Virus genome (UHGV): UHGV-0253196
Length of the DNA stretch: 64,000 nucleotides
Reading direction: 5' to 3' (one strand)
Origin: a virus
This document shows positions 29,319-62,934 of the stretch, piece after piece. The translations under genes were made by a program, and so were the position numbers. The notes beneath the pieces were generated by a model. The model was not told the DNA's origin and ran no database searches. It saw only the letters and a program-made list of their open reading frames with translations. Position 1 is the first letter of the stretch, and every line of letters starts with the position of its first letter.

Positions 29319-29795
29319 TTGCCAAAGTTAAAGATTAACAGTAAGGGTGCAGAGAACAAAGAAAAAGTGCACAGAGAAGCCCAGAGAAGGGGAAAGAGAA
29401 ACAAAGTCAAAGGTGGTGAGTATGAACGCAAAGTTGCTGAAATACTCAAAGGTATGTTAGGTGTTGAGTTTGTGAGAACACCGCAGAGCGGAGGGTTTGC
29501 AAAGAAATCGGACGCAAACACCAAAGACTTTAGAGGTGACATTATACCGCTTGACGCAGACGTTGAGACGGTCTTGCATATAGAGTGCAAGAACTATAAG
29601 AACTGGGCCATGCCAAAGTGGGTAGCACAGGCTGAGAGTGATTGTCCCAAAGGTAAGATTCCTTGTATTATCTTCCACAAGTACGGAACCTCACGGGACT
29701 ATATCGTGTTAGACCTCAAACACTTCTTAAAACTTATCCATATCCCGGAGGTTATCATAAAGACCGTGACAAAGAAAAGGGGTGCTAGTAAATGA
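29319..29795 (+). CDS. PD-(D/E)xK nuclease (RecU/Hjc-like), paralogue of 26571..27092
   Basis: EYERKVAEILKG...FRGDIIPLDADVETVLHIECK. RBS GAAAGGAG lies 8 nt upstream of TTG. Confidence 0.5.
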   Translation: MPKLKINSKGAENKEKVHREAQRRGKRNKVKGGEYERKVAEILKGMLGVEFVRTPQSGGFAKKSDANTKDFRGDIIPLDADVETVLHIECKNYKNWAMPKWVAQAESDCPKGKIPCIIFHKYGTSRDYIVLDLKHFLKLIHIPEVIIKTVTKKRGASK

Positions 29796-30166
29796 TGGTG
29801 TTGTTAAATGTAAGCTGGGCTATTGTAGCGTGTGTGATTGCGCGATACCTTTACAAACACCCAATTTTAAGAATACATGGTCGTTCAATGTACCCCACAT
29901 ACAAAGATGGTGATGTTGTGCTGGGCTTAAGATACAACTACAAACACTGTGACATAAGACAAGGTTCTGTAGTTGTAGTGAATAGTCCGAATGGTGTTAA
30001 AGCCATAAAGAGAGCCACAGCGTTTAAGTACAAAGAAGGTATTATGTATGTGTGGGTTGAGGGTGATAACCCCAGTGAAAGTTATGACAGCAGAAACTAC
30101 GGGTGGTTGACTACAAAAGACATTGTAGCGATTGACCCTAAACCAAGAGTAAAGGAGAAAGTATAA
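29792..30166 (+). CDS. type I signal peptidase (S26 family, SipW-like)
   Basis: N-terminal transmembrane segment. GRSMYPT matches the catalytic Ser box. GDNPSESYDSRNYG matches SPase box E. Confidence 0.7.
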   Translation: MMVLLNVSWAIVACVIARYLYKHPILRIHGRSMYPTYKDGDVVLGLRYNYKHCDIRQGSVVVVNSPNGVKAIKRATAFKYKEGIMYVWVEGDNPSESYDSRNYGWLTTKDIVAIDPKPRVKEKV

Positions 30167-30168
30167 CC

Positions 30169-30468
30169 ATGGGTAAGACAGAAAACACCAACACCGAAGG
30201 AGTTACCATTGTCCATGTTTCCTCAGACACCAACGTGCAGAAGTTGGCAGGTAGTCTTTTAACTGCCATTGAAAATAGCACCGCTGTAGAGGTGAGAGCG
30301 ATTGGTGCCGGGGCAGTGAACCAGATGTATAAAGCTATCGCAAGTGCGAGAGGTTATGTTGCGCGTAAAGGACGTGACCTGTATATAAGACCCGGCTTTG
30401 ATGAAGTCATTGAAGAAGGTTCTGAAAAGACAAAGACCGTCATGGTCGCAAGACTTATTGTGATGTAA
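30169..30468 (+). CDS. SpoVS-like (stage V sporulation protein S) homologue
   Basis: AIGAGAVNQMYKAIASARGYVARKGRDLYIRPGF...TKTVMVARLIV aligns along the whole bacterial SpoVS. Confidence 0.7.
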   Translation: MGKTENTNTEGVTIVHVSSDTNVQKLAGSLLTAIENSTAVEVRAIGAGAVNQMYKAIASARGYVARKGRDLYIRPGFDEVIEEGSEKTKTVMVARLIVM

Positions 30469-30699: not shown

Positions 30700-31086
30700 A
30701 TGAAAACGAGTATTACAAAAATGTTCACCTTTGAAGCGGCACACAGATTACCTAACTATGTAGGTGCGTGCGCTAATCTTCACGGTCATTCTTATAAACT
30801 TGCCGTGACTGTCACCACAGATAAGCCTTTAAATAAAGACCGCAACGCAACGGGTATGATAATGGATTTTAAAGTCCTCAAAGACATTGTGAACCGAAAG
30901 GTTGTCGGCCCGTTAGACCATTCACTGTTAAATGACTTTTACTACAACCCCACCGCCGAGATTATGGTAGAAGACTTTGCCGCGAATATACAGGCAGGAC
31001 TTGATGATTTTGATGAAAGTGTGTACGTTTCAAACATTAAGTTGTGGGAGACCGAAGACAGCTATGCAGAGTGGTCGAGAGACTAG
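30700..31086 (+). CDS. queD: 6-carboxy-5,6,7,8-tetrahydropterin synthase QueD
   Basis: PTPS-fold signature FTFEAAHRLPNY...CANLHGHSY. 128 aa. Confidence 0.8.
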   Translation: MKTSITKMFTFEAAHRLPNYVGACANLHGHSYKLAVTVTTDKPLNKDRNATGMIMDFKVLKDIVNRKVVGPLDHSLLNDFYYNPTAEIMVEDFAANIQAGLDDFDESVYVSNIKLWETEDSYAEWSRD

Positions 31087-31103
31087 AGAAAGAGGTGTTG
31101 TAT

Positions 31104-31745
31104 ATGATGTTCTATCATGAGATATTTTTATCTATACAGGGTGAATCCAGTGACGCAGGACGCCCTTGTATATTTGTAAGAATGTACGGCTGTCCGATTG
31201 GGTGTTCATATTGCGACCAGCCCCAGGAAAAGAGTGACAGAAAGCGTATTGGTGTTGACACCATGTTATCAAAGATATACGCATTGAAGTGTAAGAACGT
31301 GTGCTTCACAGGTGGAGAACCTATGATTTACGCGCAGGAACTTATACCCGTGTTTATCGAACTTACCGACCGGGGCTACACCGTGTCCGTAGAGACCAGC
31401 GGGTGTGTAGAGTTAGAGTCTTACCCCGTGAGAAGGTCATTTAAGTACGTGATGGATATTAAATGCCCCAGTAGTGAGGTGTCAGAGAAGAACATTTACA
31501 GAAACCTTGCGTACTTACAGCCACATGACGAGGTGAAGTTTGTCGTGGCAGACGAGAAGGACTACCAATTTGCCCGTAACGTGTTAAAGCGTTATAATAC
31601 CAGTGCGCAAATTTTATTTAGTCCCATGTTTGACACAGACGGCAAAGCAGTGATAGGACAAGAACTTGTGAACTGGATTTTGAGAGACAAGCTGTTTAAT
31701 GCCCGGGTTCAGATTCAGTTACACAAAATTCTGTCAGTGAGGTAA
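31104..31745 (+). CDS. queE: 7-carboxy-7-deazaguanine synthase QueE (radical SAM)
   Basis: IFLSIQGESSDAGRPCIFVRMYGCPIGCSYCD is a QueE-type N-terminus with a CxxxCxxC cluster. GGEP motif. RBS AGAGGTG. Confidence 0.8.
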   Translation: MMFYHEIFLSIQGESSDAGRPCIFVRMYGCPIGCSYCDQPQEKSDRKRIGVDTMLSKIYALKCKNVCFTGGEPMIYAQELIPVFIELTDRGYTVSVETSGCVELESYPVRRSFKYVMDIKCPSSEVSEKNIYRNLAYLQPHDEVKFVVADEKDYQFARNVLKRYNTSAQILFSPMFDTDGKAVIGQELVNWILRDKLFNARVQIQLHKILSVR

Positions 31746-31749
31746 ACAC

Positions 31750-32472
31750 ATGATTGGAAAACGTAACCCAGAAAAAGACCAAGACTATTACAATGGTCTG
31801 ATTGAGAGTATATGGTATAATCTAGTAGAGGTTAAATCAGAACTTACAGGTATTAAAGAGGAAGTAAACAAAGACCATCCATTTAAAGAAGACCCAGGAC
31901 ACCTTAGTGCTGAAAGATTACCCGTAAAGAAAAATACTATTAGGGAGCACTTAAAGGAGGGTTATCTTCCTAAAAGACCCGTTAAGGTGTTCAGTAACCG
32001 GGACGAAGCATATGATTGTTTATACTACTGGTTAGAGAAGTTATATCTTACCGATTGGGCCATAAAACTTAAATTCGTGCGGATAAATGAAGAACCACTT
32101 AATGACGAACAGTCTGGCGACGTACGCAGAGTATTTGAGCAGAAAGCGGCGATAATCACCCTTCCATTGCCAGACGATAACTTTCTTGACGCTTGCAAAA
32201 GCAGTGTTGCGAGAGTGGGCCACGAACAGTCTTTGGTGCATGAGTTATTGCACTTAAAGGAAGACCCTGTACAGTTTGTAGAAGATGGTGATTATACCGC
32301 CGGGTTCTATAACATACACAAACACAATGAAGTTGAAATGATGGCAAGAACACTGTTAATGGTGAAGTACAACTTATCGCCGTCTTACTTCAATAACGTA
32401 GACAGAAAGGAGAACGACAATGGCTTGTGGCACAAAGAAACCGAAGACACCGAAGAAACCCAAAAAGAATAA
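31750..32472 (+). CDS. hypothetical protein with an HExxH motif (HELLH)
   Basis: SLVHELLHL. It lies inside the deazaguanine cluster. Confidence 0.4.
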   Translation: MIGKRNPEKDQDYYNGLIESIWYNLVEVKSELTGIKEEVNKDHPFKEDPGHLSAERLPVKKNTIREHLKEGYLPKRPVKVFSNRDEAYDCLYYWLEKLYLTDWAIKLKFVRINEEPLNDEQSGDVRRVFEQKAAIITLPLPDDNFLDACKSSVARVGHEQSLVHELLHLKEDPVQFVEDGDYTAGFYNIHKHNEVEMMARTLLMVKYNLSPSYFNNVDRKENDNGLWHKETEDTEETQKE

Positions 32473-32487
32473 GAAGTAGGACAACCG

Positions 32488-32518
32488 AAGACCTGTGCTA
32501 ATAAAGACAGGTCTTTTC
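32488..32518 (+). terminator. stem-loop (AAGACCTGT..ACAGGTCTT followed by TT)
   Basis: Perfect 9-bp stem. Confidence 0.5.
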
Positions 32519-32520
32519 GT

Positions 32521-32847
32521 ATGAAAGGAATACATGACATGGGACAGATATCAAAATTAGCTGAAAATGCGTATGAAACCGCAGTTGCGCACGGTTGGTA
32601 TGACACACCAGTTTCGTTTGGTGAGGAAGTTGTGTTGTGTCACAGTGAGTTATCCGAAGCACTACAGGAGTTTAGAGTAGGAGGGTTTGGAACACGTAAA
32701 GACAAGATAACTGAGGAACTAGCAGACACAGTTATAAGGATTTTTACTCTAAGTTCAAGACACCAGCTTGACATTGAAGCGGCAATATTAAAGAAGATGG
32801 AAAAGAACAAAGACAGACCATACAGACATGGAGGAAAGTTACTATGA
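32521..32847 (+). CDS. MazG-like nucleoside triphosphate pyrophosphohydrolase (start may be ATG 32539)
   Basis: EExxE...EELAD motifs: CHSELSEALQEFR, EELADTVIRIF. Confidence 0.6.
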   Translation: MKGIHDMGQISKLAENAYETAVAHGWYDTPVSFGEEVVLCHSELSEALQEFRVGGFGTRKDKITEELADTVIRIFTLSSRHQLDIEAAILKKMEKNKDRPYRHGGKLL

Positions 32848-34559
32848 GTAAACCAGTTGTAGTATTAAATAGTGGAGGTTTTGACAGCACCGTATTGTTA
32901 CATTATGTAAAAGAGGTTGAAGAAGACAGTCTTGTATACTCACTGTTTTTTGAATACGGTCAGCGTTCCATGGAACAAGAAAGACGCTGTGCGCGTAAAA
33001 ACTCTGTAGACCTTGACGCGCAGTATATAGGTGTCAGTCTTCCAAAGATATACTGGACTGGCAGTGACTTCTATAATGAGGGAGGGTTTAAGGTAGACAA
33101 GCAGTATCTTGAAATGAGAAATTTAATTTTTCTGTCATATGCTCTTTCCTTTGCAGAGAGTGTAGGTGCAGAAAAGGTTTATCTTGCAGTGCTGAAATCA
33201 CACCACGGGTATCCAGACACATCACCTAGATTTATTAGTGCTATGAATGAGGTATCGAATATAATAGGTGTTAGTATTGAAGCACCATTTATAGAGAGTG
33301 ACAAATACAACCTTGTTGGTCTTGCTTACAAGTACGGCATTACTGAAAACGACTTTCACAGTTGTGATAAACCTACTACAGACGGGAAACCGTGTGGCGT
33401 GTGTGATGATTGTGAGGTAGTAAAAGAAATCATGTCCCAGTTAGAGTTAAAACACCCACGGGACGTAAAGTTTAGTCCAAGAGGAACACATGAACAGTAT
33501 GAGACCGTCTATAAAGAGTACCCGGTGAGTGAGTTAAGATTCACCATAAATAACAGGTGCCAGTTTAGTTGCGCTCATTGTTACTACGGATATGAGACTT
33601 CACACCGGGAAGACCTATCAGAGAAGGAACTTACTGAATTTGCTATCAGACTTCACAAGCAGTTTGGGTTTAAGAGTATTCACTATTGCGGCAAAGAACC
33701 TATGATTGATAGCGCGATATTTGATTCCATAAGGACACTTAGGAAGGTGTTACCCGTTGACATTGAATACAGTGTTGTAACAAACGGCTTAACTGTGACT
33801 GAATACTATGAGCAGTTAGTGAATGAAAGGTTGTTAGACAAGGTGTTCCTGTCCGTTGATGATATTGAGACAGTGACGGATAAAGAACAGAAGTTACGAA
33901 ACACCAGTAGGCATATATTAAATGCTATAGACTTCCTGGTTACGAATAAAGTTCCGTTACAAGTGTTTATTGACCTTCACAAAGGTAACTACAACTACAT
34001 CAATGAAATGTTGTATCAGTTAGTGAAGTTAGGTGTTAGAGAGTTTTTCGTCCGGGCAATAATGCCAATAGGTAACGCCGAAGACCTTGAACCTCTGTCC
34101 ATAGCAGAGATAGCGGAAGTGTACAGTAAACTTAAGAGGTTGACAAACTATTACCACACCACCGTTAAAGACTTTAAAGTACTTCTTACTTTAGGTAAAG
34201 ACGTTATAGTCCGTATGCAGGAGCGTGACATTGACGATATGACAAAAGACGAGGAAGACTTAATAGAAATGGTTGCAAAGTCTTTAGAGTATAACACAGA
34301 CGTTGTTGTGCCGGGAATGAGTATATACCCGGAGGAAGTTTGCACACAGTTTCTTGATACTCTTACCCTTACATCAGACGGGTATGTGTTAGGCTGTACT
34401 TCCGCTGTAAGCTGTAGTGAGTACTGGAAACACAGCGCGTTTGATATAAATACACCAGACGAGGACTTCAAGAATCGTTTGATTGAAGCAAGAAGTAAGG
34501 TGTTAGAGTATGACGGTGAAAATTGTCCATTTTCTTGTCCCAAAAGTATTGACATTTAA
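32844..34559 (+). CDS. queC: fusion protein: QueC (7-cyano-7-deazaguanine synthase) N-terminal domain plus a radical SAM domain with a SPASM/twitch-like C-terminal Cys cluster
   Basis: N-terminus has VVLNSGGFDST (PP-loop) and the QueC zinc motif CDKPTTDGKPCGVCDDC. Residues from about 225 onwards have CQFSCAHCYYG (Cx3Cx2C), GKEPM, and C-terminal GCTSAVSC...CPFSC. Confidence 0.7.
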   Translation: MSKPVVVLNSGGFDSTVLLHYVKEVEEDSLVYSLFFEYGQRSMEQERRCARKNSVDLDAQYIGVSLPKIYWTGSDFYNEGGFKVDKQYLEMRNLIFLSYALSFAESVGAEKVYLAVLKSHHGYPDTSPRFISAMNEVSNIIGVSIEAPFIESDKYNLVGLAYKYGITENDFHSCDKPTTDGKPCGVCDDCEVVKEIMSQLELKHPRDVKFSPRGTHEQYETVYKEYPVSELRFTINNRCQFSCAHCYYGYETSHREDLSEKELTEFAIRLHKQFGFKSIHYCGKEPMIDSAIFDSIRTLRKVLPVDIEYSVVTNGLTVTEYYEQLVNERLLDKVFLSVDDIETVTDKEQKLRNTSRHILNAIDFLVTNKVPLQVFIDLHKGNYNYINEMLYQLVKLGVREFFVRAIMPIGNAEDLEPLSIAEIAEVYSKLKRLTNYYHTTVKDFKVLLTLGKDVIVRMQERDIDDMTKDEEDLIEMVAKSLEYNTDVVVPGMSIYPEEVCTQFLDTLTLTSDGYVLGCTSAVSCSEYWKHSAFDINTPDEDFKNRLIEARSKVLEYDGENCPFSCPKSIDI

Positions 34560-34576
34560 TACTCATGGTGTATAAT
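34549..34576 (+). promoter_or_regulatory. sigma-A-type promoter TTGACA-16-TATAAT embedded in the 3' end of the queC-fusion gene
   Basis: Read directly from the sequence. A 6-bp hairpin (GTAGGT..ACCTAC) lies in the leader. Confidence 0.55.
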
Positions 34577-34665
34577 TGTATTCAGAGATTTAGGAATGGC
34601 GTAGGTCTTCCGTATTTACCTACAGCCTAGTCCCTTGCTCACAATACGATAAGGAGGTAAACACC

Positions 34666-34842
34666 ATGATGAATGTTTACGCAGAATCCCCCAAAGGTGG
34701 CGGGCGTGCCGCTGGTGGTAATGCACAGCAGACTGCACCCGCACCGACCAGAGGTGGAGTAAGAGCCACACTGGGTAGAGCGGCTACAGGTGCAAGAAAC
34801 GCGCTGAACAGGATTATTCGTCCCAGAGGACGTAACCGTTAA
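34666..34842 (+). CDS. small Gly/Ala/Arg-rich basic protein (58 aa), markedly GC-rich, not in the track
   Basis: Strong RBS AAGGAGGT lies 8 nt upstream of ATGATG. It has its own promoter and terminator. Confidence 0.4.
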   Translation: MMNVYAESPKGGGRAAGGNAQQTAPAPTRGGVRATLGRAATGARNALNRIIRPRGRNR

Positions 34843-34864
34843 TCAGTCCCGCACCAAGAAAGAG

Positions 34865-34898
34865 AGAAGTCCTAATAAACTGGGACTTCTTTTCTTTT
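34865..34898 (+). terminator. rho-independent terminator (AGAAGTCC..GGACTTCT followed by TTTCTTTT)
   Basis: Read directly from the sequence. Confidence 0.65.
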
Positions 34899-34944
34899 AC
34901 CCGGATTTATGTTATACTGTCTTAAAAAGAAAGGAGACAACACA

Positions 34945-35199
34945 ATGTATATTGAATCACCAAGAGACAAAGAAGGAGTTAGAGACTGGGAAGCAGAAGA
35001 AGACGCACAGGCTTTATTAAAAGCCCGCCAAATTAACTCAGACCCCGTGAGAAAAGCGAAAGCACAGGCGGTTATAAGGAGTACCCAGGCCACGTTACAA
35101 GGTGCGTTGACTGGGACACCTCCTGTAAACACACCGAGTTCAAGAAATAACCCCGCCACTATCGGACAGTTAAACATTCCCGGCAGAAACAAAAGATAA
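34945..35199 (+). CDS. hypothetical protein
   Basis: RBS AAAGGAGACA precedes ATG 34945. Confidence 0.4.
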   Translation: MYIESPRDKEGVRDWEAEEDAQALLKARQINSDPVRKAKAQAVIRSTQATLQGALTGTPPVNTPSSRNNPATIGQLNIPGRNKR

Positions 35200-35254
35200 C
35201 ACCAGAACACCACAAACACATTATATACTTACAGAAGACAGAAAGGAATCGCGC

Positions 35255-35806
35255 ATGAACGATAAATACAATTTGAGTTCAAAAGAGCAGGAGATAGCCA
35301 GCCATATAAAAGGTATAATGAGTTTGCTAGGTATTGAGGAAACACCATCAAACATAGACACCCCAAAGCGGATAGCGAAAATGTATAGCCGCGAAGTGTT
35401 TAGCAGTGAAGGTAAAGACCTAGCCGAACTTGACGCACAAATGACTACTTTCATTAACACGGATTTAAGTTCAATGCCCGTGACAATGACCGGGATTAAG
35501 TTTAGTTCCATGTGTGCACACCACTGGCTACCATTTTTCGGTGAAGTAGAGATAAGCTACACACCGTTTACCAAAGTGATTGGGTTGTCAAAACTGCCGC
35601 GAGTTGTGAAGTGGTTCAGTAAAAAGCCACAGACCCAGGAAGAAATGACGAAAGAGATAGGGAACTACTTAGCAGTGTTCCTTAATCCCCGTAAACTGTC
35701 CGTGAAGGTAACAGCATTGCATACTTGCGTAGCGTGTAGGGGAATTGAGAGCGTAGGGACAGAGACCATAACTGAATACAGATATAACAGAGGGGAAGAC
35801 GCTTAA
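35255..35806 (+). CDS. folE: GTP cyclohydrolase I FolE
   Basis: MCAHHWLPFFGEVEISYTP matches CEHHLVPF. GLSKLPRVVKWFSKKPQTQEEMT matches GLSKLxR...QERLT. Confidence 0.8.
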   Translation: MNDKYNLSSKEQEIASHIKGIMSLLGIEETPSNIDTPKRIAKMYSREVFSSEGKDLAELDAQMTTFINTDLSSMPVTMTGIKFSSMCAHHWLPFFGEVEISYTPFTKVIGLSKLPRVVKWFSKKPQTQEEMTKEIGNYLAVFLNPRKLSVKVTALHTCVACRGIESVGTETITEYRYNRGEDA

Positions 35807-35870
35807 CGGCGTCTTTTCTTTTGCGCGCAATATGATATAATAAGTACATAACTTATGAAAGAGGTGAACC

Positions 35871-36452
35871 ATGAAGGTAGCAATATTTAATGGCAGTTCA
35901 AGACAGCATAGTAACAGTGAACTAATCTCAGGTGAATTAAGACGTATATTTGAGCGTCTAGGGTATGACACCGTAGTGCTCAATGCAAGTGACATGACAG
36001 GCTGTAGACCATGTAATCAATGTGGATTCTGTAGTTCAGTAGGTAGCTGTATATATGAAAGAGATACTCTGGGACAACACCATATTAAATGTATATGGGC
36101 TAGTGACATATGGGTGATTGTAACACCTGTGTATTGCTTTTCCATGTCCCCGCCGACCTTGACGTTACTGTCCCGGTTTTATTCTTATGGCCCAGAAGTG
36201 TTGCAAGATAAAGTTGTGTCTTCTGTGATAGTAAGTGGCAGTAGCGGTAGATATGGTGGAAAGAGCCTTGTAAATGAATCCTTTAAGCGATACTTTGAAT
36301 ATACAGGTGCTAACTATACAAACAAGCCCATAGGTATCACTACAAACGACACCGTGTTAGAAGACCTGCATACACTTACACCACGGTTAAGACTATTTTG
36401 TAAAGACTTGATAAGGAGAGCGAAAAATGCTGAAAATAGTACCAAGGACTAA
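35871..36452 (+). CDS. iron-sulfur flavoprotein (NADPH-dependent FMN reductase fold with a compact Cx2Cx2Cx2C..C motif)
   Basis: MKVAIFNGSSRQHSNSE flavodoxin-like start. CRPCNQCGFCSSVGSC cluster. Confidence 0.55.
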   Translation: MKVAIFNGSSRQHSNSELISGELRRIFERLGYDTVVLNASDMTGCRPCNQCGFCSSVGSCIYERDTLGQHHIKCIWASDIWVIVTPVYCFSMSPPTLTLLSRFYSYGPEVLQDKVVSSVIVSGSSGRYGGKSLVNESFKRYFEYTGANYTNKPIGITTNDTVLEDLHTLTPRLRLFCKDLIRRAKNAENSTKD

Positions 36453-38595
36453 AAAGAAACCCGTACCAAAGAAAAAGGTTCCACCAAAAAAGAAGACCAC
36501 CACGCCCGTAGAGATAGACGAGACCCCGGAAGTAGAGGAAGAACCAAAAAAGAACTATAGTTCTCTGCATGATGTAATGGACACTAACAGACCTTTTAAG
36601 TTAGTGTTTTCTGGCGTTGAGAATGAAAGCTACTATGACATACTTTTTGATTGCGGCGTGCGTAGCTTTCTAATGTCCTATCACTATATCCAGAGCAAGC
36701 ACATTAAAATGCGTGATAGGTTTGATGGGACGGGTGTTAAACTGTTTATTGATAGTGGCGCGCATACATACCAGAATGACCCTAAATATCTGGAACTTCC
36801 GTTAGAGTATTGGGAGAAGCACTTGCAGAAGTACCTTAACTGGGTTGAGCGGAATAGAAAGTATATATTTGCCATAGCAAGTTTTGACTTTGAGAACATT
36901 GTAGGTGCAGACACAGTAGATAGGTGGAACCGAGAATACTTAGAACCGTTCATGTTGCGCACAGGTATACCAGTGTGTTTCGTGTGGCACCAAAATTCAA
37001 AGTATGACTGGGAGTTCTATTGCAAGCGTTATCCCTATGTGGGATTTTCGTCTGTCAATACAGAAGGTGAAGCCATAGAACTATCAGAGTATAAACAAAG
37101 ACTGAAAGTGGCAGAGAAGAACGAAGCACTTGTACACGGGTTCGGTATGACGCGTACAGGTATGTTGACTGAACTTCCCTTCTACACCTCAGATAGTACG
37201 ACATGGCTTGTGGGTTTGCAGTATGGGGAAATGAACTACTGGAATGGCACCAAAATGAACCGCCTTAAGAAAGACAAGTGGAAATCACCTGCTGTACTAT
37301 CAGAGTTTGAGAGAAGGTATAACTCAGACCAAACACTGTTAGAGCAGGAAGACATAACCGAGGTGATAAAAGTCAATGTGTTTGCTTTCCTTGACGCAGA
37401 GGATTATATCGTCACCAAGCTACGTTCTCAAATGTACTGGTTAAAAGCAAAGACAACTAAACGGGACGTGAATAACTTACCGCCAGACTTCTTTCCAGAC
37501 CCTGACATGGTGATGGTGTGTTTAGACGAAGGTGATAAAAGTGTAGTGTCATATGCTCAGAAATTTAATATCAACCCGGAATATGCTGACGCTGACTTTT
37601 TAGTGTGTTGTGCTACATTGTTCCTTAACTGGGATAACTCAATATACAGTGACTGTAAGGACATACTCATTGAGGACGAAGCAGTGATTAAATCCCTCCA
37701 TGACACACTGATAAACAGGATAGTCCCAGGTGTTGATGAAATGGTCGAAGACCTAACGCAGTTATTCAAAGAGTGCATAAGCGGCGAGAATGACAAGCTA
37801 TTACAGATAGGCACCAACTTTGACCGCGCACAGAAAGAGCGTGAACACTATATAGAGGAAGAAGACGAGTATGAGGAAGTAGAAGTATCAGAAGGTGAGA
37901 TAAGGGCCGCTGTGTATAACAACATTCCTAAAGACCGTCTTCTTACCGCAGGTGAAGATTCCGCGCCAGAGATTACGGAACTTGACGCAGAAATATTTAA
38001 CGGCACAGGTATAACACCACGTTTTGATGATAGAGGTAAATTCCTTAAAGGTGTTAGACAAGTAAAGAAACCAAAGTCCGTGTACAGTAAGAAGTTCCCT
38101 AAACTGGCGTGTGCTACGTGTTTCGCGGCAAGTACGTGTCCAGAATACAAAGACGGCTATGTGTGTGCTTATAATAAGCTGTTCAGCAACTATGACACAC
38201 GTAACATGGGTGACATTGTAGAAGCTATGCAATCCATGGCAAGTGTGAACATGGGCCGCCTACAGAAAGCAATGCTGTTTGAGACACTAGGTGGTGCATT
38301 AGACCCACAGGTATCACAGCTTATTAATCAGAACGTCACTTTGCTGAACAACCTTAAGTCAATGTATGAGAACACCAACGCAATGGTGCTTAAACAGACC
38401 CGCAATATAAGACAGGACGGAAGTGTAGAAGAATCTGTGCAAGTAACCAATCCTCAGAGCATGGGTATTATGGAACAGTTACTATCAAAGATAATGCCTA
38501 GTAGTGATAAAGAAGACGAGGTTATAGTTGAATCAGAGGACGTAACACCCAAAAAGAAAAGCAGTGCATATGCAGACCTGGAAGAAGACGATTAA
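36427..38595 (+). CDS. dpdA: DpdA-like tRNA-guanine-transglycosylase-fold protein (putative DNA 7-deazaguanine transglycosylase) with a lysine-rich N-terminus and a roughly 400-aa C-terminal extension
   Basis: LFIDSGAHTYQ is compatible with the TGT DSGGFQ Asp motif. HGFGMTRTGMLTELPFYTSDSTTW fits GxGxT...DxFDC. It is co-located with folE, queDEC. A late Cys cluster CATCFAASTC...C is present. Confidence 0.5.
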   Translation: MLKIVPRTKKKPVPKKKVPPKKKTTTPVEIDETPEVEEEPKKNYSSLHDVMDTNRPFKLVFSGVENESYYDILFDCGVRSFLMSYHYIQSKHIKMRDRFDGTGVKLFIDSGAHTYQNDPKYLELPLEYWEKHLQKYLNWVERNRKYIFAIASFDFENIVGADTVDRWNREYLEPFMLRTGIPVCFVWHQNSKYDWEFYCKRYPYVGFSSVNTEGEAIELSEYKQRLKVAEKNEALVHGFGMTRTGMLTELPFYTSDSTTWLVGLQYGEMNYWNGTKMNRLKKDKWKSPAVLSEFERRYNSDQTLLEQEDITEVIKVNVFAFLDAEDYIVTKLRSQMYWLKAKTTKRDVNNLPPDFFPDPDMVMVCLDEGDKSVVSYAQKFNINPEYADADFLVCCATLFLNWDNSIYSDCKDILIEDEAVIKSLHDTLINRIVPGVDEMVEDLTQLFKECISGENDKLLQIGTNFDRAQKEREHYIEEEDEYEEVEVSEGEIRAAVYNNIPKDRLLTAGEDSAPEITELDAEIFNGTGITPRFDDRGKFLKGVRQVKKPKSVYSKKFPKLACATCFAASTCPEYKDGYVCAYNKLFSNYDTRNMGDIVEAMQSMASVNMGRLQKAMLFETLGGALDPQVSQLINQNVTLLNNLKSMYENTNAMVLKQTRNIRQDGSVEESVQVTNPQSMGIMEQLLSKIMPSSDKEDEVIVESEDVTPKKKSSAYADLEEDD

Positions 38596-38626: not shown

Positions 38627-38654
38627 TTGACAGTTTCCTTATTAAAGCTATAAT
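38627..38654 (+). promoter_or_regulatory. sigma-A-type promoter TTGACA-16-TATAAT
   Basis: Read directly from the sequence. Confidence 0.6.
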
Positions 38655-39438: not shown

Positions 39439-39467
39439 TTGACAGCATTTACCATATGTGCTACACT
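39439..39467 (+). promoter_or_regulatory. sigma-A-type promoter TTGACA-17-TACACT
   Basis: Read directly from the sequence. Confidence 0.5.
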
Positions 39468-39514
39468 GTACCAGTATCACTATTAAACAACCACATACAA
39501 AAGGAGGAAAAGAA

Positions 39515-40195
39515 ATGGCAGTAATCAGAACAAGTACAGGTGAGAAGCCCAAGAGAGGAGAGCTGTACTACGTCTATCCGCAGATGGCGTGGGACAATGA
39601 TGATTCTGAGAAAGGGACAAGCAGAACTGATGTAAAGAGTGGGAGACCCGCTATCATTATTGGTAATGACGCTGGGAATGGTGCTTCTGATATGTGTGTT
39701 ATTGCGTGGCTTACACGTCAAGACAAAGCACCTTTACCAGAACACGTTACAGTACCTTCCGGCCCCGCCAAAGAATCAACTATGTTGCTGGAACACCCCA
39801 TCACCGTGTCTCAATCGCGTTTAGGTGAAAAGATTAGCACCTGTTCCACACCATTAATGAAGAAAGTTGATTCTGCATTGCTGGTATCTATAGGTATATG
39901 TGATACCTTACAAGACGCTGAATATCTGTTAAAATGTCGTGCTATGGTGTATGACTTGCAAGCGCAGGTAGATACATATAAGCACGAACTTAAAGAGAAA
40001 GACGCGGAAATTAAATCATTAAAAGATAAACTTGAAGTTAGTGACACCAATATAAGGGATTTAAGTAACAGGTTAGAGTGTGCAGAAAATCAGAACACCT
40101 ATAACCCAAGTGATTTAAAACTTGAATTGGTGTTAAATGAGCGGGATTATTTGAGGGACCTTGTTAAGCTGTCAATGACAGGAGGTATTATCTAA
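39515..40195 (+). CDS. MazF/PemK-like (CcdB/MazF fold) domain protein with a C-terminal coiled coil
   Basis: GELYYVYP, KSGRPAIIIGND, MCVIAWLTRQ, PEHVTVP and ESTMLLEHPITVSQSRLGEKI parallel the MazF/PemK motifs GDIVxVDF, RPAVVLS, VVVPLTS, HVxL and IDKxRL. Confidence 0.45.
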   Translation: MAVIRTSTGEKPKRGELYYVYPQMAWDNDDSEKGTSRTDVKSGRPAIIIGNDAGNGASDMCVIAWLTRQDKAPLPEHVTVPSGPAKESTMLLEHPITVSQSRLGEKISTCSTPLMKKVDSALLVSIGICDTLQDAEYLLKCRAMVYDLQAQVDTYKHELKEKDAEIKSLKDKLEVSDTNIRDLSNRLECAENQNTYNPSDLKLELVLNERDYLRDLVKLSMTGGII

Positions 40196-59277: not shown

Positions 59278-62200
59278 GTGTCTCATAAATTGGGACGTTT
59301 TATTTTGTGGTGGAAAATAACACTGTGTTTTCTGCTGTCATGGGTGTTAGACCTTTGTGATTGTACACTTGTTAGAGTTATAGAGGTCACAGTGTTTGCC
59401 GGGAGAGTGAAGACTACAGACCTAGTGAACATGATATTTAATTTCTGTGAGCTATATTCTGGCAAGACTATGTTCCCGTACCAAGCACAGTTCTCAAAGA
59501 GGGTTATCCGTTCAATACTGTTAAATGACGGTGAAGAAATAACAGCCCTGTTTGCGCGACAATCTGGTAAGTCAGAGACCATAGCAATAACAGTTGGTGG
59601 TCTTATGATTATGTTGCCACAGCTTGCCAATATGCCAATGTTCGCGGGAGACACAAGACTTGAAATGTTCAAAGACGGTCTCTGGGTTGGTATATTCGCG
59701 CCCGGTAAACGACAAGCAGAGATTACCTATAACCGTGTAAGACAGCGGTTGCAGTGTAAGACCGCATTAGCAGTAATGCAAGACCCGGAATTTAATCTAT
59801 ACTTCCACACGTCCAACGGGCAAACGTGTTCACTGTCTAACGGTTCTTTCGTTACGTGTATATCAGCGTCCGACCAGTCCAACATTGAGGGTGAATCTTT
59901 CAAACTTATTATATGTGAGGAATGTCAAGACATATCCAACTATAAGATTAGAAAGTGTTTGACTGGTGACACACTTGTGCTGACTGATAGTGGTAAGTAT
60001 AAAAGGCTTGATGAAATAGTAAAAGACCAAACAGATAGTGTTGTGTGCTATGACAGTACAATGTCTTATTTGCAGGTGAGAAAGCCCAAAGAGTATTTAG
60101 ATAATGGCGTTCAAGACGTATATGAGATAACACTAGATAACGGGGAGACTATAAAAGCTACAGAAAACCATCAGTTTTACACGTATAACCAAAAGACCCA
60201 CGGCGAGAAGTGTGCATTTAGGACTGTAAATCAAATAAAGGACAGTATGTGTAATGACCGTCCTTTAAGAATAGGTGTACCTGCGAGATTGCCTTACTTT
60301 TCAGATGAAAAGCAGAATGACTACGAAGAAGGGTTAATTTTAGGTTATTTCTTAGGTGACGGGTGCACAGTATCGACACCTAAGTTTATAGGTGATATAC
60401 CTACGTGTAATAGACTTTATGATACTATTCGTAGATGTATAGACCCGGATATAAAAATGACAGAAACACACTACAATGAACAGAATGGTATGTTAGAGGT
60501 GTGTTTTTCTACTGAAACGAATAAGAAGTATTCTAACTCACTTAGGAACTTCTTTATGTGGTATGGTTTAGCCGATAAAACGGGTGTTGATAAAAAGTTG
60601 CCAGAAAACACGCTGTACTCAAAACAGTTCTATAGAGGTCTTATAGAAGGACTTATAGAGACAGACGGCAGTATAGAGTGTTGTTGTACTAAACCTGTTA
60701 TATCCTTTGCGGGAATATCAAAACACCTTGTAGAACAAGTAAAAGAAATACTTAATCGTTTTGGTGTTCATTCTACAATACACAGTGTTGATAACACAGG
60801 AGGTTTATCTAAAAACTCAAAGACCTTGTGGTTACTTCACATTAAGTCAGTTCATGACATAAGGTTGTTTGCGGAGGAATTTGTGTTATTTAGAAAGCAA
60901 GTGTATTTGAATGAAGCACTTGAAACAGTCAAGGACAAAGAAGATAGGGAGGTGTCTAAATACTATTCCGAAGAAATGCGTTTCTGTGCGGTAAAGAGTA
61001 TTGAGTATGTAGGTAAGGAACACACCTACTGTTTAAGTGTTGAAGGTAGAAACTTTATAGCAAATGGTATGATAAGTTCAAATAGCATACACCCAATGGG
61101 CGCCGCTTATAATGCTACCATAGTTAAGATTGGTACTGCTACCACCTTTAAGGGTGATTTTTATGACGCTATACAGCGTAACAAGACCAACTACGAGCAT
61201 AAGAAAAAAGAGTACCGCAAGCGTGGCAGTAATATATCTACACTTGTTCGGAACCATTTTGAGTATGACTATAAAGTGGCCGCTAAGTATAACCCTAAGT
61301 ACGCCAAGTATGTTGAACAGGAAATGAAGCGTTTAGGCGAAAACTCAGACGAGTTTAGAATGGCGTACTGTGTTACACCAGAAACGCGTATACTTACAGC
61401 AGACCTACGACACGTAAGGGCAGACCAAATTAAACCGGGAGATAAGTTGATAGGTTTTGATGAAAATGTACCAAGTAAGTATGGACAAAGAAGATTCAGA
61501 GAGTCTATTGTTGAAGATGTGGGTGTGATACAAAGACCTTGTTATAAGTTGACACTTGAAGATGGAACCAGTGTAACAAGTTCATCTGAACATATGTGGT
61601 TAGTGTTTACCGCAGGAAGTAGAACACAGTGGAAGAAGACAGAAGATTTAATGCTTACTGACCGGATATATAAAGTAAGTGACGTGTGGGATACCCCAGA
61701 TGAACTTAATTATAAGATAGGATACTTATCCGCCGCATTTGACGGGGAAGGTTGTGTGTGCCAGTTAAAAGGTAAAATCAGTCAAGTGTCATTTTCACAG
61801 CGTAACAATGCTATGCTTAAAAAAGTAAAACAGTATCTAACAGATTTAGGGTTTACTTATGGTGAACGGGTAGAGCATAGAGAAGGTTACGATTCTGTTC
61901 ATCATTTGTACTTAACAGGTGGTAAATATGAATTGTATAGATTTTTAGGTACAGTAAGACCACAAAGATTGCTGAATAATTTTGATGTTAATAGATTAGG
62001 TACTCTCAGATGTGTAAATTATGCTAGTAGAGGTTTTACACATCCATGTGTTATAAAAAAGCAGTTTATAGGTGTTCAGACAGTTATACCTATAAGGACT
62101 TCTACACGAACCTTTGTCGCTAATGGTTTTGCTAGCCATAACTGCTTAGAGTGGATTATCGAACGTGGTATGTTCGTTGATATAGATAAGTTTGAGGTTG

Positions 62201-62934
62201 CAAATGGTGAACCAATGCTTGAACGTGTTTCTTATGACAAGAAAGCTAAACACGTTGCTGGTATAGACGTAGGTGGTAAGAATGACGATACCATTATCAC
62301 CATAGTAGAGGTAGACTGGTCTATGCCTGTTATCATGGAGGAACGTACAGAAGATTCCGGGCAAAGAATCATGTATGAAGCGTATAACACCTTTATTGTA
62401 GACTGGTGTTGTATAGCAAATGAGCCGGATTATGAAATTCAGTACAACATGATAATACACTACTTAAACAATTTCTGGGTAGTCCGTGTTGTGTGTGACG
62501 CAACCAGAGAGGCAAGTTTGGCCCATAGACTAAGAGCAAATTTAAGGTGTGAAGTCATACCATACATTTTCACCACGGTGTCTAAGTCCGAACTGTACAA
62601 GCTGTTAGACACAGAAATATCTTCCGGGCGCGCAAGAGTTCCATGCGGTGAAGCTACGAAAGAGACCAAAGAGTATAAGTCATTCATGAAGCAGTTAGGT
62701 GATTTACAAAAAGGCTGGTCTGGTGCGCACATGGTATGTTGCCACGGTTCCGGGAAAGACGACCATGATGATTACTGTGACAGTTGGGCTTTAGCTGTGT
62801 GGGGTGCTAGTAGTAAGGGAGAAGAAAATAACACAGAGACACGGGAAAATAAGTTCATGAAGAAGACACCAAACGAAAAGACCGCAAACAACAGACGTAA
62901 TTGTTTGACGGCGCGAAGAATGAGAAGGAGGTAA
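59278..62934 (+). CDS. terL: terminase large subunit interrupted by two inteins; the extein is about 584 aa. The start is uncertain: GTG 59278 gives a hydrophobic N-terminus, and the real start may be ATG near 59431 or 59473
   Basis: Walker A ARQSGKSE, Walker B-like LIICEE, and a C-terminal nuclease-like acidic region. The portal gene follows. Confidence 0.7.
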   Translation: MSHKLGRFILWWKITLCFLLSWVLDLCDCTLVRVIEVTVFAGRVKTTDLVNMIFNFCELYSGKTMFPYQAQFSKRVIRSILLNDGEEITALFARQSGKSETIAITVGGLMIMLPQLANMPMFAGDTRLEMFKDGLWVGIFAPGKRQAEITYNRVRQRLQCKTALAVMQDPEFNLYFHTSNGQTCSLSNGSFVTCISASDQSNIEGESFKLIICEECQDISNYKIRKCLTGDTLVLTDSGKYKRLDEIVKDQTDSVVCYDSTMSYLQVRKPKEYLDNGVQDVYEITLDNGETIKATENHQFYTYNQKTHGEKCAFRTVNQIKDSMCNDRPLRIGVPARLPYFSDEKQNDYEEGLILGYFLGDGCTVSTPKFIGDIPTCNRLYDTIRRCIDPDIKMTETHYNEQNGMLEVCFSTETNKKYSNSLRNFFMWYGLADKTGVDKKLPENTLYSKQFYRGLIEGLIETDGSIECCCTKPVISFAGISKHLVEQVKEILNRFGVHSTIHSVDNTGGLSKNSKTLWLLHIKSVHDIRLFAEEFVLFRKQVYLNEALETVKDKEDREVSKYYSEEMRFCAVKSIEYVGKEHTYCLSVEGRNFIANGMISSNSIHPMGAAYNATIVKIGTATTFKGDFYDAIQRNKTNYEHKKKEYRKRGSNISTLVRNHFEYDYKVAAKYNPKYAKYVEQEMKRLGENSDEFRMAYCVTPETRILTADLRHVRADQIKPGDKLIGFDENVPSKYGQRRFRESIVEDVGVIQRPCYKLTLEDGTSVTSSSEHMWLVFTAGSRTQWKKTEDLMLTDRIYKVSDVWDTPDELNYKIGYLSAAFDGEGCVCQLKGKISQVSFSQRNNAMLKKVKQYLTDLGFTYGERVEHREGYDSVHHLYLTGGKYELYRFLGTVRPQRLLNNFDVNRLGTLRCVNYASRGFTHPCVIKKQFIGVQTVIPIRTSTRTFVANGFASHNCLEWIIERGMFVDIDKFEVANGEPMLERVSYDKKAKHVAGIDVGGKNDDTIITIVEVDWSMPVIMEERTEDSGQRIMYEAYNTFIVDWCCIANEPDYEIQYNMIIHYLNNFWVVRVVCDATREASLAHRLRANLRCEVIPYIFTTVSKSELYKLLDTEISSGRARVPCGEATKETKEYKSFMKQLGDLQKGWSGAHMVCCHGSGKDDHDDYCDSWALAVWGASSKGEENNTETRENKFMKKTPNEKTANNRRNCLTARRMRRR
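59956..61083 (+). mobile_element. intein 1 (376 aa) with a LAGLIDADG homing-endonuclease domain, inserted after YKIRK in the terminase ATPase domain
   Basis: CLTGDTLVLTDSG start and NFIANGMISSN end, with +1 Ser. Internal LILGYFLGDGC and GLIEGLIETDGS. Confidence 0.65.
61369..62142 (+). mobile_element. intein 2 (258 aa, LAGLIDADG-type) in the terminase nuclease domain
   Basis: CVTPETRILTADL start and TFVANGFASHN end, with +1 Cys. Internal IGYLSAAFDGEGCV. Confidence 0.65.

Follow-up and report, generated by a model that had tools for sequence, protein, structure and literature searches.

Eight 7-deazaguanine bases are known from phage DNA and, QueE aside, no enzyme involved has been classed as radical-SAM (radical S-adenosylmethionine), DpdM displaying a CxxxCxxC motif only. 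In phage 9g, DpdA1 inserts preQ0 into DNA, and the DpdA cluster of this phage also encodes Gat-QueC, a fusion likewise known from archaea that makes the archaeosine base G+. Only one radical-SAM enzyme, RaSEA, has been described that operates after preQ0 in a 7-deazaguanine pathway; it forms a tight complex with its partner ArcS. The Cap9/QatC proteins further established that enzymes of the QueC type are not restricted to ammonia and can use other amines. Here we describe a phage module in which QueC is fused to a C-terminal radical-SAM domain and accompanied by an iron-sulfur (Fe-S) flavoprotein. It occupies positions 30700-38595 (+ strand) of virus genome UHGV-0253196, of which a stretch of 64,000 nucleotides was analysed (hereafter the window), and consists of a run of same-strand genes for QueD, QueE, the QueC–radical-SAM fusion, FolE, the flavoprotein (flavin mononucleotide, FMN, fold with four cysteines, Cys4) and a DpdA-type transglycosylase of 722 amino acids (aa). 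The principal features are the following:

30700-31086, + strand: QueD (6-carboxytetrahydropterin synthase), 128 aa; Pfam PTPS 2.9e-29, TIGR03367
31104-31745, + strand: QueE (7-carboxy-7-deazaguanine synthase, radical-SAM), 213 aa; TIGR04349 2.1e-57, phrog_2076 3.4e-38
32844-34559, + strand: QueC–radical-SAM fusion, a single uninterrupted open reading frame (ORF) of 571 aa; Pfam QueC and Radical_SAM
32844-33455, + strand: QueC domain, fusion residues 1-204; Pfam QueC 1.9e-33 (residues 5-193)
33456-34559, + strand: radical-SAM/twitch domain, fusion residues 205-571; Pfam Radical_SAM 9.2e-14 (residues 235-381)
35255-35806, + strand: FolE (GTP cyclohydrolase I), 183 aa; Pfam 3.4e-44, phrog_2197 6e-49
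35871-36452, + strand: Fe-S-flavoprotein-like protein with FMN reductase fold, 193 aa; Pfam FMN_red 7.2e-16
36427-38595, + strand: DpdA, 722 aa; phrog_887 'queuine tRNA-ribosyltransferase' 1.1e-72
36598-37446, + strand: DpdA catalytic TIM-barrel domain, residues 58-340; fold of the tRNA-guanine transglycosylase (TGT) type
37447-38595, + strand: clade-specific C-terminal extension of DpdA, ~380 aa; helical domain, Cys4, long helices

Elsewhere, the window is a phage genome encoding tail fibres, an endolysin, helicases, a primase, PolA, a UvsX-like recombinase, a ligase and a terminase; it contains no tRNA genes. A nucleotide search of GenBank phages gave zero matches and relatives were found at the protein level only, the nearest GenBank phage, and closest relative in culture, being Bacillus phage BCD7 (DpdA identity 41.7%). 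The phage is an uncultured, ~80-kb relative of BCD7 and its host is probably an anaerobic member of the Bacillota. In the Supplementary Data of Hutinet et al. (2019), a 757-aa protein of BCD7 is listed as DpdA alongside FolE, QueD, QueE and QueC (group 'DpdA + preQ0 pathway'). Both phages share the order PD-(D/E)XK nuclease, S26-like peptidase, SpoVS, QueD, QueE, QueC, small Gly/Arg-rich proteins, FolE and long DpdA, and the interval represents a phage module for 7-deazaguanine modification of DNA, syntenic with the BCD7 cluster. Yet, QueC of BCD7 is unfused (~215 aa) and BCD7 is devoid of the flavoprotein; in addition to the BCD7 set, the window displayed the 367-aa radical-SAM/twitch domain, the Fe-S flavoprotein, a MazG-like gene and an HExxH protein. 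An initial annotation, made from the letters and their ORFs, had already proposed a phage DNA-modification cluster of this type. The synteny with BCD7 agrees with that proposal, ORF, profile and fold searches found all of the genes it had named on the + strand of the interval, and its FolE, QueD, QueE and QueC assignments held in profile hidden Markov model (HMM) searches.

The QueC half of the fusion matched the profiles of solved QueC structures (3bl5, ~2e-20; 2pg3, ~5e-20), and Cap9 also appeared among its structural and profile matches. Its SGGFDS P-loop and zinc motif C174-x9-C184-x2-C187-x2-C190 were invariant among 48 family members, the first spacer of the latter being one residue above the published C(x)8CxxCxxC. 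The score against TIGR00364 (98.8) stayed under the cut-off of 150.3. When compared to the canonical QueC signature of Libby et al. (2026), i.e. YxQxHxxE, VPxRN, YPDC and Tyr189, the Tyr, Gln, Arg-Asn and Tyr-x-Asp residues were kept, while four positions were changed (His39 to Ser, Glu42 to Gln, Cys134 to Thr and Tyr189 to Asp, in YGQRSMEQ, LEMRN, YPDT and SCD). Unfused QueCs from the same clade depart in similar ways. Cap9 and QatC have the fold and P-loop of QueC as well, but are host defence proteins operating with Cap10 or with QatA, QatB and QatD, whereas the window gene belongs to a phage biosynthetic/DpdA module with FolE, QueD and QueE.

The radical-SAM half was recognised by Pfam Radical_SAM with 52.4 bits (cut-off 29.5). 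Invariant residues among the 48 members comprised C239x3C243x2C246, G283, E285 and P286 of SGKEP, N314 and G315 of TNG and S337 of SxD; K284, T313 and D339 were nearly so. Three auxiliary cysteines (C500, C518 and C561) were likewise invariant, C500…G513-x4-C518 forming a Cx17(Gx4)C hairpin that fits the Cx9-17Gx4C pattern typical of twitch/SPASM auxiliary clusters. Since just three auxiliary cysteines are invariant, the domain is twitch-like rather than a full seven-cysteine SPASM. It is complete in all these elements and, judging from them, looks catalytically intact. The AlphaFold2 model of the fusion had a mean predicted local distance difference test (pLDDT) score of 91.5 and a predicted template modelling (pTM) score of 0.88, the latter suggesting a fixed arrangement of the two domains.

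As to its relatives, a profile search of solved structures placed MoaA closest to the radical-SAM half (1.3e-16), followed by SkfB, BlsE and viperins; Foldseek put the peptide maturases SkfB, SuiB and CteB on top, and the fold matches those of SkfB, MoaA, anSME and BlsE. Among family models, it matched MoaA (3e-17), PADLOC pVip (1.1e-13) and a further prokaryotic viperin (1.3e-11). All scores were far under the family cut-offs (for the MoaA equivalogs, 62.6 versus 325 bits for archaeal MoaA, 58.4 versus 231 and 56.1 versus 284), indicating a separate family and not a member of MoaA. In MoaA, three cysteines hold the C-terminal auxiliary [4Fe-4S] cluster, leaving one iron free that binds GTP through its guanine. 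The window family shares the three invariant auxiliary cysteines but differs from MoaA and viperin in cysteine spacing, in the lack of any molybdopterin or antiviral context in the window and in its likely substrate, a free deazapurine base.

Fusion proteins were recovered at full length from independent assemblies (98% identical), and the QueC–radical-SAM architecture recurs in no fewer than 120 metagenomic protein clusters (545-575 aa), with identities of 33-40%. When the radical-SAM half was used by itself in an exhaustive HMMER scan, 46 representatives were obtained at E<=1e-30, nearly all of them fused; a k-mer search for standalone homologues returned fused proteins only, and the rare standalone forms (such as P0276 and P0279) came without genomic context. 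At every locus examined, the fusion sat inside the deazaguanine module. No description of it was found in the searchable deazaguanine papers or in the 2026 QueC-family survey. Two distant standalone relatives of 355 aa (L044:7956-9023 and L045:7902-8969, ~23% identity), with twitch cysteines apparently lost, occurred in metagenome-assembled genomes (MAGs) of Bacteroidales (Prevotellaceae and Azobacteroides), each adjoining a ~300-aa membrane protein; that of L044 also lies close to genes for a DNA cytosine methyltransferase and an integrase-like protein and may belong to a defence island.

The flavoprotein scored 58.6 bits against PF03358 (cut-off 24), and its Cys4 motif C48-x2-C51-x2-C54-x3-5-C60 near the N-terminus was invariant among five homologues. 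This combination of an FMN-reductase fold with a compact N-terminal CxxCxxCx3-5C is reminiscent of Isf in the FMN_red family, which binds FMN and a [4Fe-4S] cluster; sequence searches did not bring up any solved Isf, and the best profile match to a solved structure was 1rli, an FMN flavodoxin-like protein (1.5e-11). In eukaryotic TYW1, the enzyme's own flavodoxin domain feeds a guanine-modifying radical-SAM enzyme. The window protein differs from both since it is phage-encoded and genetically linked to one radical-SAM fusion, its cofactors being predicted. It was present in 8 of the 16 dereplicated fusion loci and in none of the 15-19 loci without the radical-SAM domain, and is the sole gene family exclusive to fusion loci. 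As QueE occurs at every locus and does without it, the flavoprotein is tied to the extra radical-SAM domain, and its simplest role would be that of a putative dedicated reductant for the radical-SAM cluster.

The comparison covered ~45 related loci, drawn from IMG/VR, Logan, ENA and the MAGs of GTDB. They all displayed the PD-(D/E)XK nuclease, S26-like peptidase, SpoVS, QueD, QueE, a variable slot, QueC, one or more Gly/Arg-rich proteins, FolE and the long DpdA. QueC came in three forms: unfused (~200-270 aa), fused to the radical-SAM domain, or fused to another C-terminal domain of 245 aa (L025:9998-11338, also L026-L028; 446 aa in total, of which Pfam sees QueC only). This third form was considered as a decayed radical-SAM fusion and rejected, neither HMM nor hhalign giving any signal. 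The presence of an unrelated second domain suggests that the site behind QueC serves to accommodate tailoring domains; the L025-L028 domain may be another of them, which fits a tailoring slot diversifying under restriction pressure.

Fused and unfused phages can be very close. Between L012 (fusion and flavoprotein) and L029 (plain QueC), identities reached 88% for QueD, 87% for QueE, 90% for FolE and 98% for SpoVS, the nuclease also falling within 87-98%, against 42% for the QueC domains and 68% for the DpdAs. Gene trees showed fused phages scattered among unfused ones, indicating repeated gain or loss of the radical-SAM add-on between closely related phages. The domain and its flavoprotein thus behave as an optional functional pair added to a standard preQ0/DpdA module. 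The GTDB scan provided only ~84-86 kb, phage-genome-like MAG contigs, binned with Clostridia, Eubacteriales and Thermosipho, and none from isolates. In L037 and L038 (a 137-kb contig of a Mogibacterium MAG), QueE, the QueC–radical-SAM gene, FolE and DpdA are each fragmented, which could reflect decay or assembly errors.

The initial annotation had listed three differences from described clusters. The fusion is real, recurrent and absent from the deazaguanine and QueC-family literature searched, and the Fe-S flavoprotein is equally real and seen only beside the fusion. By contrast, the length of the TGT-like protein is no difference, since ~670-760 aa is the norm for the whole phage clade (657 metagenomic protein clusters, plus the BCD7 protein). 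What is new here is the QueC–radical-SAM fusion with its flavoprotein partner, long DpdA being already known.

The 722-aa protein has a TIM-barrel fold of the TGT type, as the initial annotation had anticipated. It matched no Pfam family, TGT included; by sequence, no PDB chain gave an identifying match, and Foldseek returned generic TIM barrels only. Yet, a profile of 38 homologues aligned by hhalign with phage DpdA proteins (from a 9g-like coliphage, Streptomyces phage BRock, Mycobacterium phage Typha and Arthrobacter phage Sonali) at a probability of 99.6% (E 2.9e-24). The aspartate motifs and the VHGFG histidine were in register with those of phage DpdA (FIDSGAHTY/FLDSGAFSA, VHGFGMT/VHGFGIT and DSTTW/DSSSW). 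According to Hutinet et al. (2019), this histidine (His196) separates DpdA1 from DpdA2, which lacks it. The protein is thus of the DpdA1 type and a predicted DNA-guanine transglycosylase. It adjoins FolE, QueC, QueE and QueD here and in the ~45 related loci. In its extension, conserved across 38 and 17 homologues, the cysteines C562, C565, C571 and C580 were invariant; a weak match to phrog_6902 'terminase small subunit' (6.6e-7) was recorded, and model confidence was low past residue 470.

Among the remaining core genes, QueD scored above the TIGR03367 equivalog cut-off (91.5 versus 89.25 bits) and displayed CANLHGH at residue 24, i.e. the CxxxHGH motif providing the catalytic Cys and zinc His, and not the LxxxHRHxF motif of DpdL (motifs as defined by Cui 2023). 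All best matches of QueE were QueE models (2.1e-57 and 2.5e-45), yet each below its equivalog cut-off (194 versus 300); CPIGCSYC (CxxxCxxC) lies at residue 30, and the PHROG match (phrog_2076) is also QueE-like. FolE obtained 150.9 bits against Pfam GTP_cyclohydroI (cut-off 27), with NCBIfam equivalog scores under their cut-offs, and displayed both zinc-ligand motifs, CAHH and HTCVAC. No homologue of QueF, Gat, ArcS, DpdL, DpdM or DpdN turned up in the module in Pfam, NCBIfam and PHROG scans or among the locus gene families.

Two described systems come close to this arrangement. Gat-QueC also joins QueC to a second catalytic domain altering the 7-substituent and, in phage 9g, also lies within a DpdA cluster. 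Its partner is an N-terminal glutamine amidotransferase, whereas in the window the radical-SAM/twitch domain, of different chemistry, is joined to the C-terminal side of QueC, and Pfam detected no Gat. RaSEA depends on ArcS and its substrate is a preQ0-lysine adduct in tRNA; in contrast, the window has no ArcS homologue and the partner of its radical-SAM domain is QueC.

The explanation that we favour, with a confidence somewhat above even, is a preQ0/DpdA DNA-modification module in which the radical-SAM domain tailors the QueC product, the flavoprotein serves as reductant and a base other than plain preQ0 is inserted. From the family assignments, FolE would convert GTP into dihydroneopterin triphosphate, QueD would provide 6-carboxytetrahydropterin, QueE would yield 7-carboxy-7-deazaguanine (CDG), and the QueC domain, with ATP and ammonia, would turn CDG into the amide and then into the nitrile preQ0. 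The radical-SAM domain would possess a SAM-binding [4Fe-4S] site and an auxiliary cluster on the three invariant cysteines, one iron of which may be free for substrate, by analogy with MoaA. The flavoprotein (FMN/[4Fe-4S]) would deliver the electron for SAM cleavage, and the domain would carry out a radical step at the 7-substituent or C8 of a free base, this being the QueC product or else an intermediate still bound to QueC. The DpdA1-like enzyme, if substrate-tolerant, would then swap guanine for this base other than plain preQ0 in double-stranded phage DNA after replication, an exchange that would blunt host restriction. The fusion itself, the fixed domain arrangement and the three-cysteine auxiliary cluster speak for a small molecule as substrate, passed on by QueC, and so does the fact that the nearest solved relatives (MoaA, BlsE and viperin) act on small molecules or nucleotides.

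Several observations weigh against this explanation. The DpdA tree tracked the phage backbone and not the QueC type, and no column of the DpdA alignment splits fusion from non-fusion phages, so that a co-variation of DpdA with the fusion is unsupported. If the inserted base does differ, the DpdA pocket thus appears to have accommodated it with no visible adaptation; a different base would need a tolerant DpdA, or else modification after insertion. Such tolerance was shown for DpdA2 of VH7D, phage DpdA2 accepting preQ1, preQ0 and CDG. Repeated gain or loss implies that the fusion is dispensable, and the absence of the flavoprotein from half of the fusion loci that it is helpful but not essential. 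The link between the two reached Fisher p values of 0.0024 to 0.0005 with related phages treated as independent and phylogeny uncorrected. The four signature departures in QueC render even the baseline product (preQ0 or amide) uncertain, and the radical-SAM reaction is not deducible from sequence. The new pathway derivative suggested in the initial annotation is therefore plausible as far as the radical-SAM domain looks intact, and weakened by a DpdA that does not co-vary and a fusion repeatedly lost or gained.

More specifically, the fusion and the flavoprotein could convert the QueC product by radical chemistry into a ninth 7-deazaguanine base, as yet uncatalogued, which DpdA would install in this uncultured Bacillota phage clade; we consider this possible, at clearly less than even chances. 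It would be the first case of a DNA deazapurine being tailored by a radical-SAM enzyme, and the L025-L028 domain would stand for yet another derivative. A new product would enlarge the repertoire of natural DNA chemistry, add a new radical-SAM reaction on a purine analogue, and constitute an anti-restriction mark that could affect sequencing, cloning and phage-host prediction. The conserved fusion and its dedicated electron donor point to an unexplored tailoring step in a clade abundant in metagenomes, and form a testable lead to a new DNA base or new enzymology, for which phages nearly identical with and without the add-on offer a ready comparison. Even if the product is plain preQ0, a BCD7-like long DpdA family is now defined and the DpdA length is no longer unusual.

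The best placed among the alternatives, although we judge it unlikely, is that the radical-SAM domain and flavoprotein provide a non-orthologous route to a known base, or a mere aid to QueC, the DNA then carrying a catalogued modification. Candidates would be preQ1 (replacing QueF), G+ (replacing Gat-QueC, QueF-L or ArcS-RaSEA) and 7-deazaguanine. The lack of QueF, Gat, ArcS, DpdL, DpdM and DpdN homologues in the module leaves room for such a replacement, the indifference of DpdA to the fusion and the range of bases taken by phage DpdA2 are compatible with it, RaSEA offers a precedent for a radical-SAM step after preQ0, and a flavoprotein with predicted FMN and Fe-S cofactors would suit a multi-electron reduction. 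However, no ArcS-like lysine-transfer partner is present, the nearest radical-SAM relatives (MoaA, viperin and BlsE) are not reductases, and half of the fusion loci manage without the flavoprotein. Moreover, we know of no precedent for nitrile reduction by a radical-SAM enzyme.

The similarity to MoaA and viperins raises a second, improbable alternative, namely that the radical-SAM domain acts on a nucleoside triphosphate (NTP), remodelling GTP or another NTP for anti-defence or nucleotide-pool control, fusion to QueC ensuring co-expression. The best family and structure matches listed above are indeed to GTP- or NTP-using MoaA and to prokaryotic viperins; an Arg precedes the first cluster Cys by seven residues, presumably the same offset as that of R17 in MoaA; and a MazG-like pyrophosphatase gene lies directly upstream in this phage. 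Yet, apart from the rare standalone forms, the domain was QueC-fused within a deazaguanine module at every locus examined, the high pTM suggests an integrated two-domain enzyme, MazG is not kept in relatives, and the similarity to MoaA and viperin is confined to the common radical-SAM core.

Less probable still is a protein or peptide target, with QueC ligating CDG to a protein amine in the manner of Cap9/QatC and the radical-SAM domain operating as a maturase of ribosomally synthesized and post-translationally modified peptides. QueC-like enzymes are known to deazaguanylate proteins, Cap9 was among the matches of the QueC half, peptide maturases headed the Foldseek results, and a candidate target exists in the small conserved Gly/Arg-rich protein always encoded after QueC. 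But this small protein is equally found after unfused QueC, including in BCD7, its gene has its own promoter and terminator, the full FolE/QueD/QueE/DpdA set points to DNA base exchange, and the three-cysteine auxiliary cluster resembles those of small-molecule enzymes. Finally, modification of host or phage tRNA (of the queuosine or archaeosine type) instead of DNA is very improbable given the profile-profile homology to phage DpdA1 proteins, of which the 9g member puts preQ0 into DNA, the zero tRNA genes of the window, the missing Pfam TGT match and the BCD7 homologue catalogued as DpdA.

Other features of the interval, of which all but the MazG-like gene are additional to the initial annotation, were as follows:

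31750-32472, + strand: 240-aa zincin-like (HExxH) protein with invariant HELLH…H…E, in the variable slot between QueE and QueC
32521-32847, + strand: MazG-like nucleotide pyrophosphatase, 108 aa; phrog_3301 'pyrophosphatase' 2.3e-26
34549-34576, + strand: consensus sigma-70 promoter TTGACA-16-TATAAT, 12/12 positions
34666-34842, + strand: 58-aa Gly/Arg-rich basic protein; strong ribosome-binding site AAGGAGG, own promoter
34945-35199, + strand: small 'NPATIG' protein with C-terminal NPATIG motif; homologues in L002, L006, L010 and L019

The MazG-like gene, counted into the cluster by the initial annotation, is regarded as MazG-like only: it has the PHROG match, but both Pfam scores were under the gathering score (22.5 versus 27 bits for MazG, 21.9 versus 22 for MazG-like). 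It was absent from all other loci compared and is an accessory gene outside the conserved module, confined to this phage among them; a part in the radical-SAM add-on is thereby ruled out. The HExxH protein had no match in Pfam, NCBIfam, PHROG or PADLOC. Its homologues (136-160 aa; L006:7314-7724, L008:8917-9345, L060:4966-5445) occurred in about one third of the loci, fused and unfused alike, and it was therefore also ruled out as part of the add-on. Elsewhere, the QueE–QueC slot harboured an HNH endonuclease (L002) or a HAD-like protein (L004).

The promoter at 34549-34576 divides the cluster into separate transcription units, and a terminator-like hairpin (34864-34898) was observed 3' of the 58-aa gene. 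One or two such small (52-80 aa) Gly/Arg-rich basic proteins were encoded directly past QueC in every inspected clade locus (e.g. L001:6869-7346, L002:9825-10007, L004:9819-9986, L012:11711-11869, L019:10675-10887 and L029:10677-11095); since they also follow unfused QueC, the family is not specific to the radical-SAM domain. Their N-termini display a common [VA]-[FYHL]-A-[ETSG] four to nine residues past the Met (NVYA|ES, NVFA|TP, KVFA|EG), which may resemble the N-terminal propeptide that Prp removes from ribosomal protein L27 in Firmicutes, or else a -3/-1 signal-peptidase site.

The NPATIG family (L006:10305-10523, L002:7641-7952, L010:9604-9930, L019:9671-9997) has no database annotation and its position in the module varies. 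It possesses a conserved helix, 'W.R.DA.TLA.AE.IKADKERY', and most members end in NPATIG[RQ][LF], that of L006 in NPATIKRL, while that of L019 is without the motif. A further protein of 197 aa with 'SIDFDYF' and 'NIDFHHDMY' (L002:10097-10690, L010:12101-12694), located between the small basic protein and FolE, had no Pfam match and could be a metal-dependent hydrolase; its cluster comprised one fusion-plus-flavoprotein, two fusion and one unfused loci, and is thus not fusion-restricted.

Around the module, genes for a short, 124-aa peptidase of the S26/S24-like type and for a homologue of SpoVS (8e-23) lie directly upstream of QueD (29792-30468), as in the whole clade, BCD7 included. A 1218-aa ORF at 59278-62934 matched the terminase large subunit over residues 64-228 only (6e-13); it is unusually long for a terminase and may contain an insertion or fusion. 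Immediately past DpdA, a second perfect consensus promoter was found at 38627-38654 and, two genes downstream (39458-40195), a protein of 245 aa is encoded that has both a PemK/MazF-like toxin domain (1.5e-14) and, at its C-terminus, a coiled coil.

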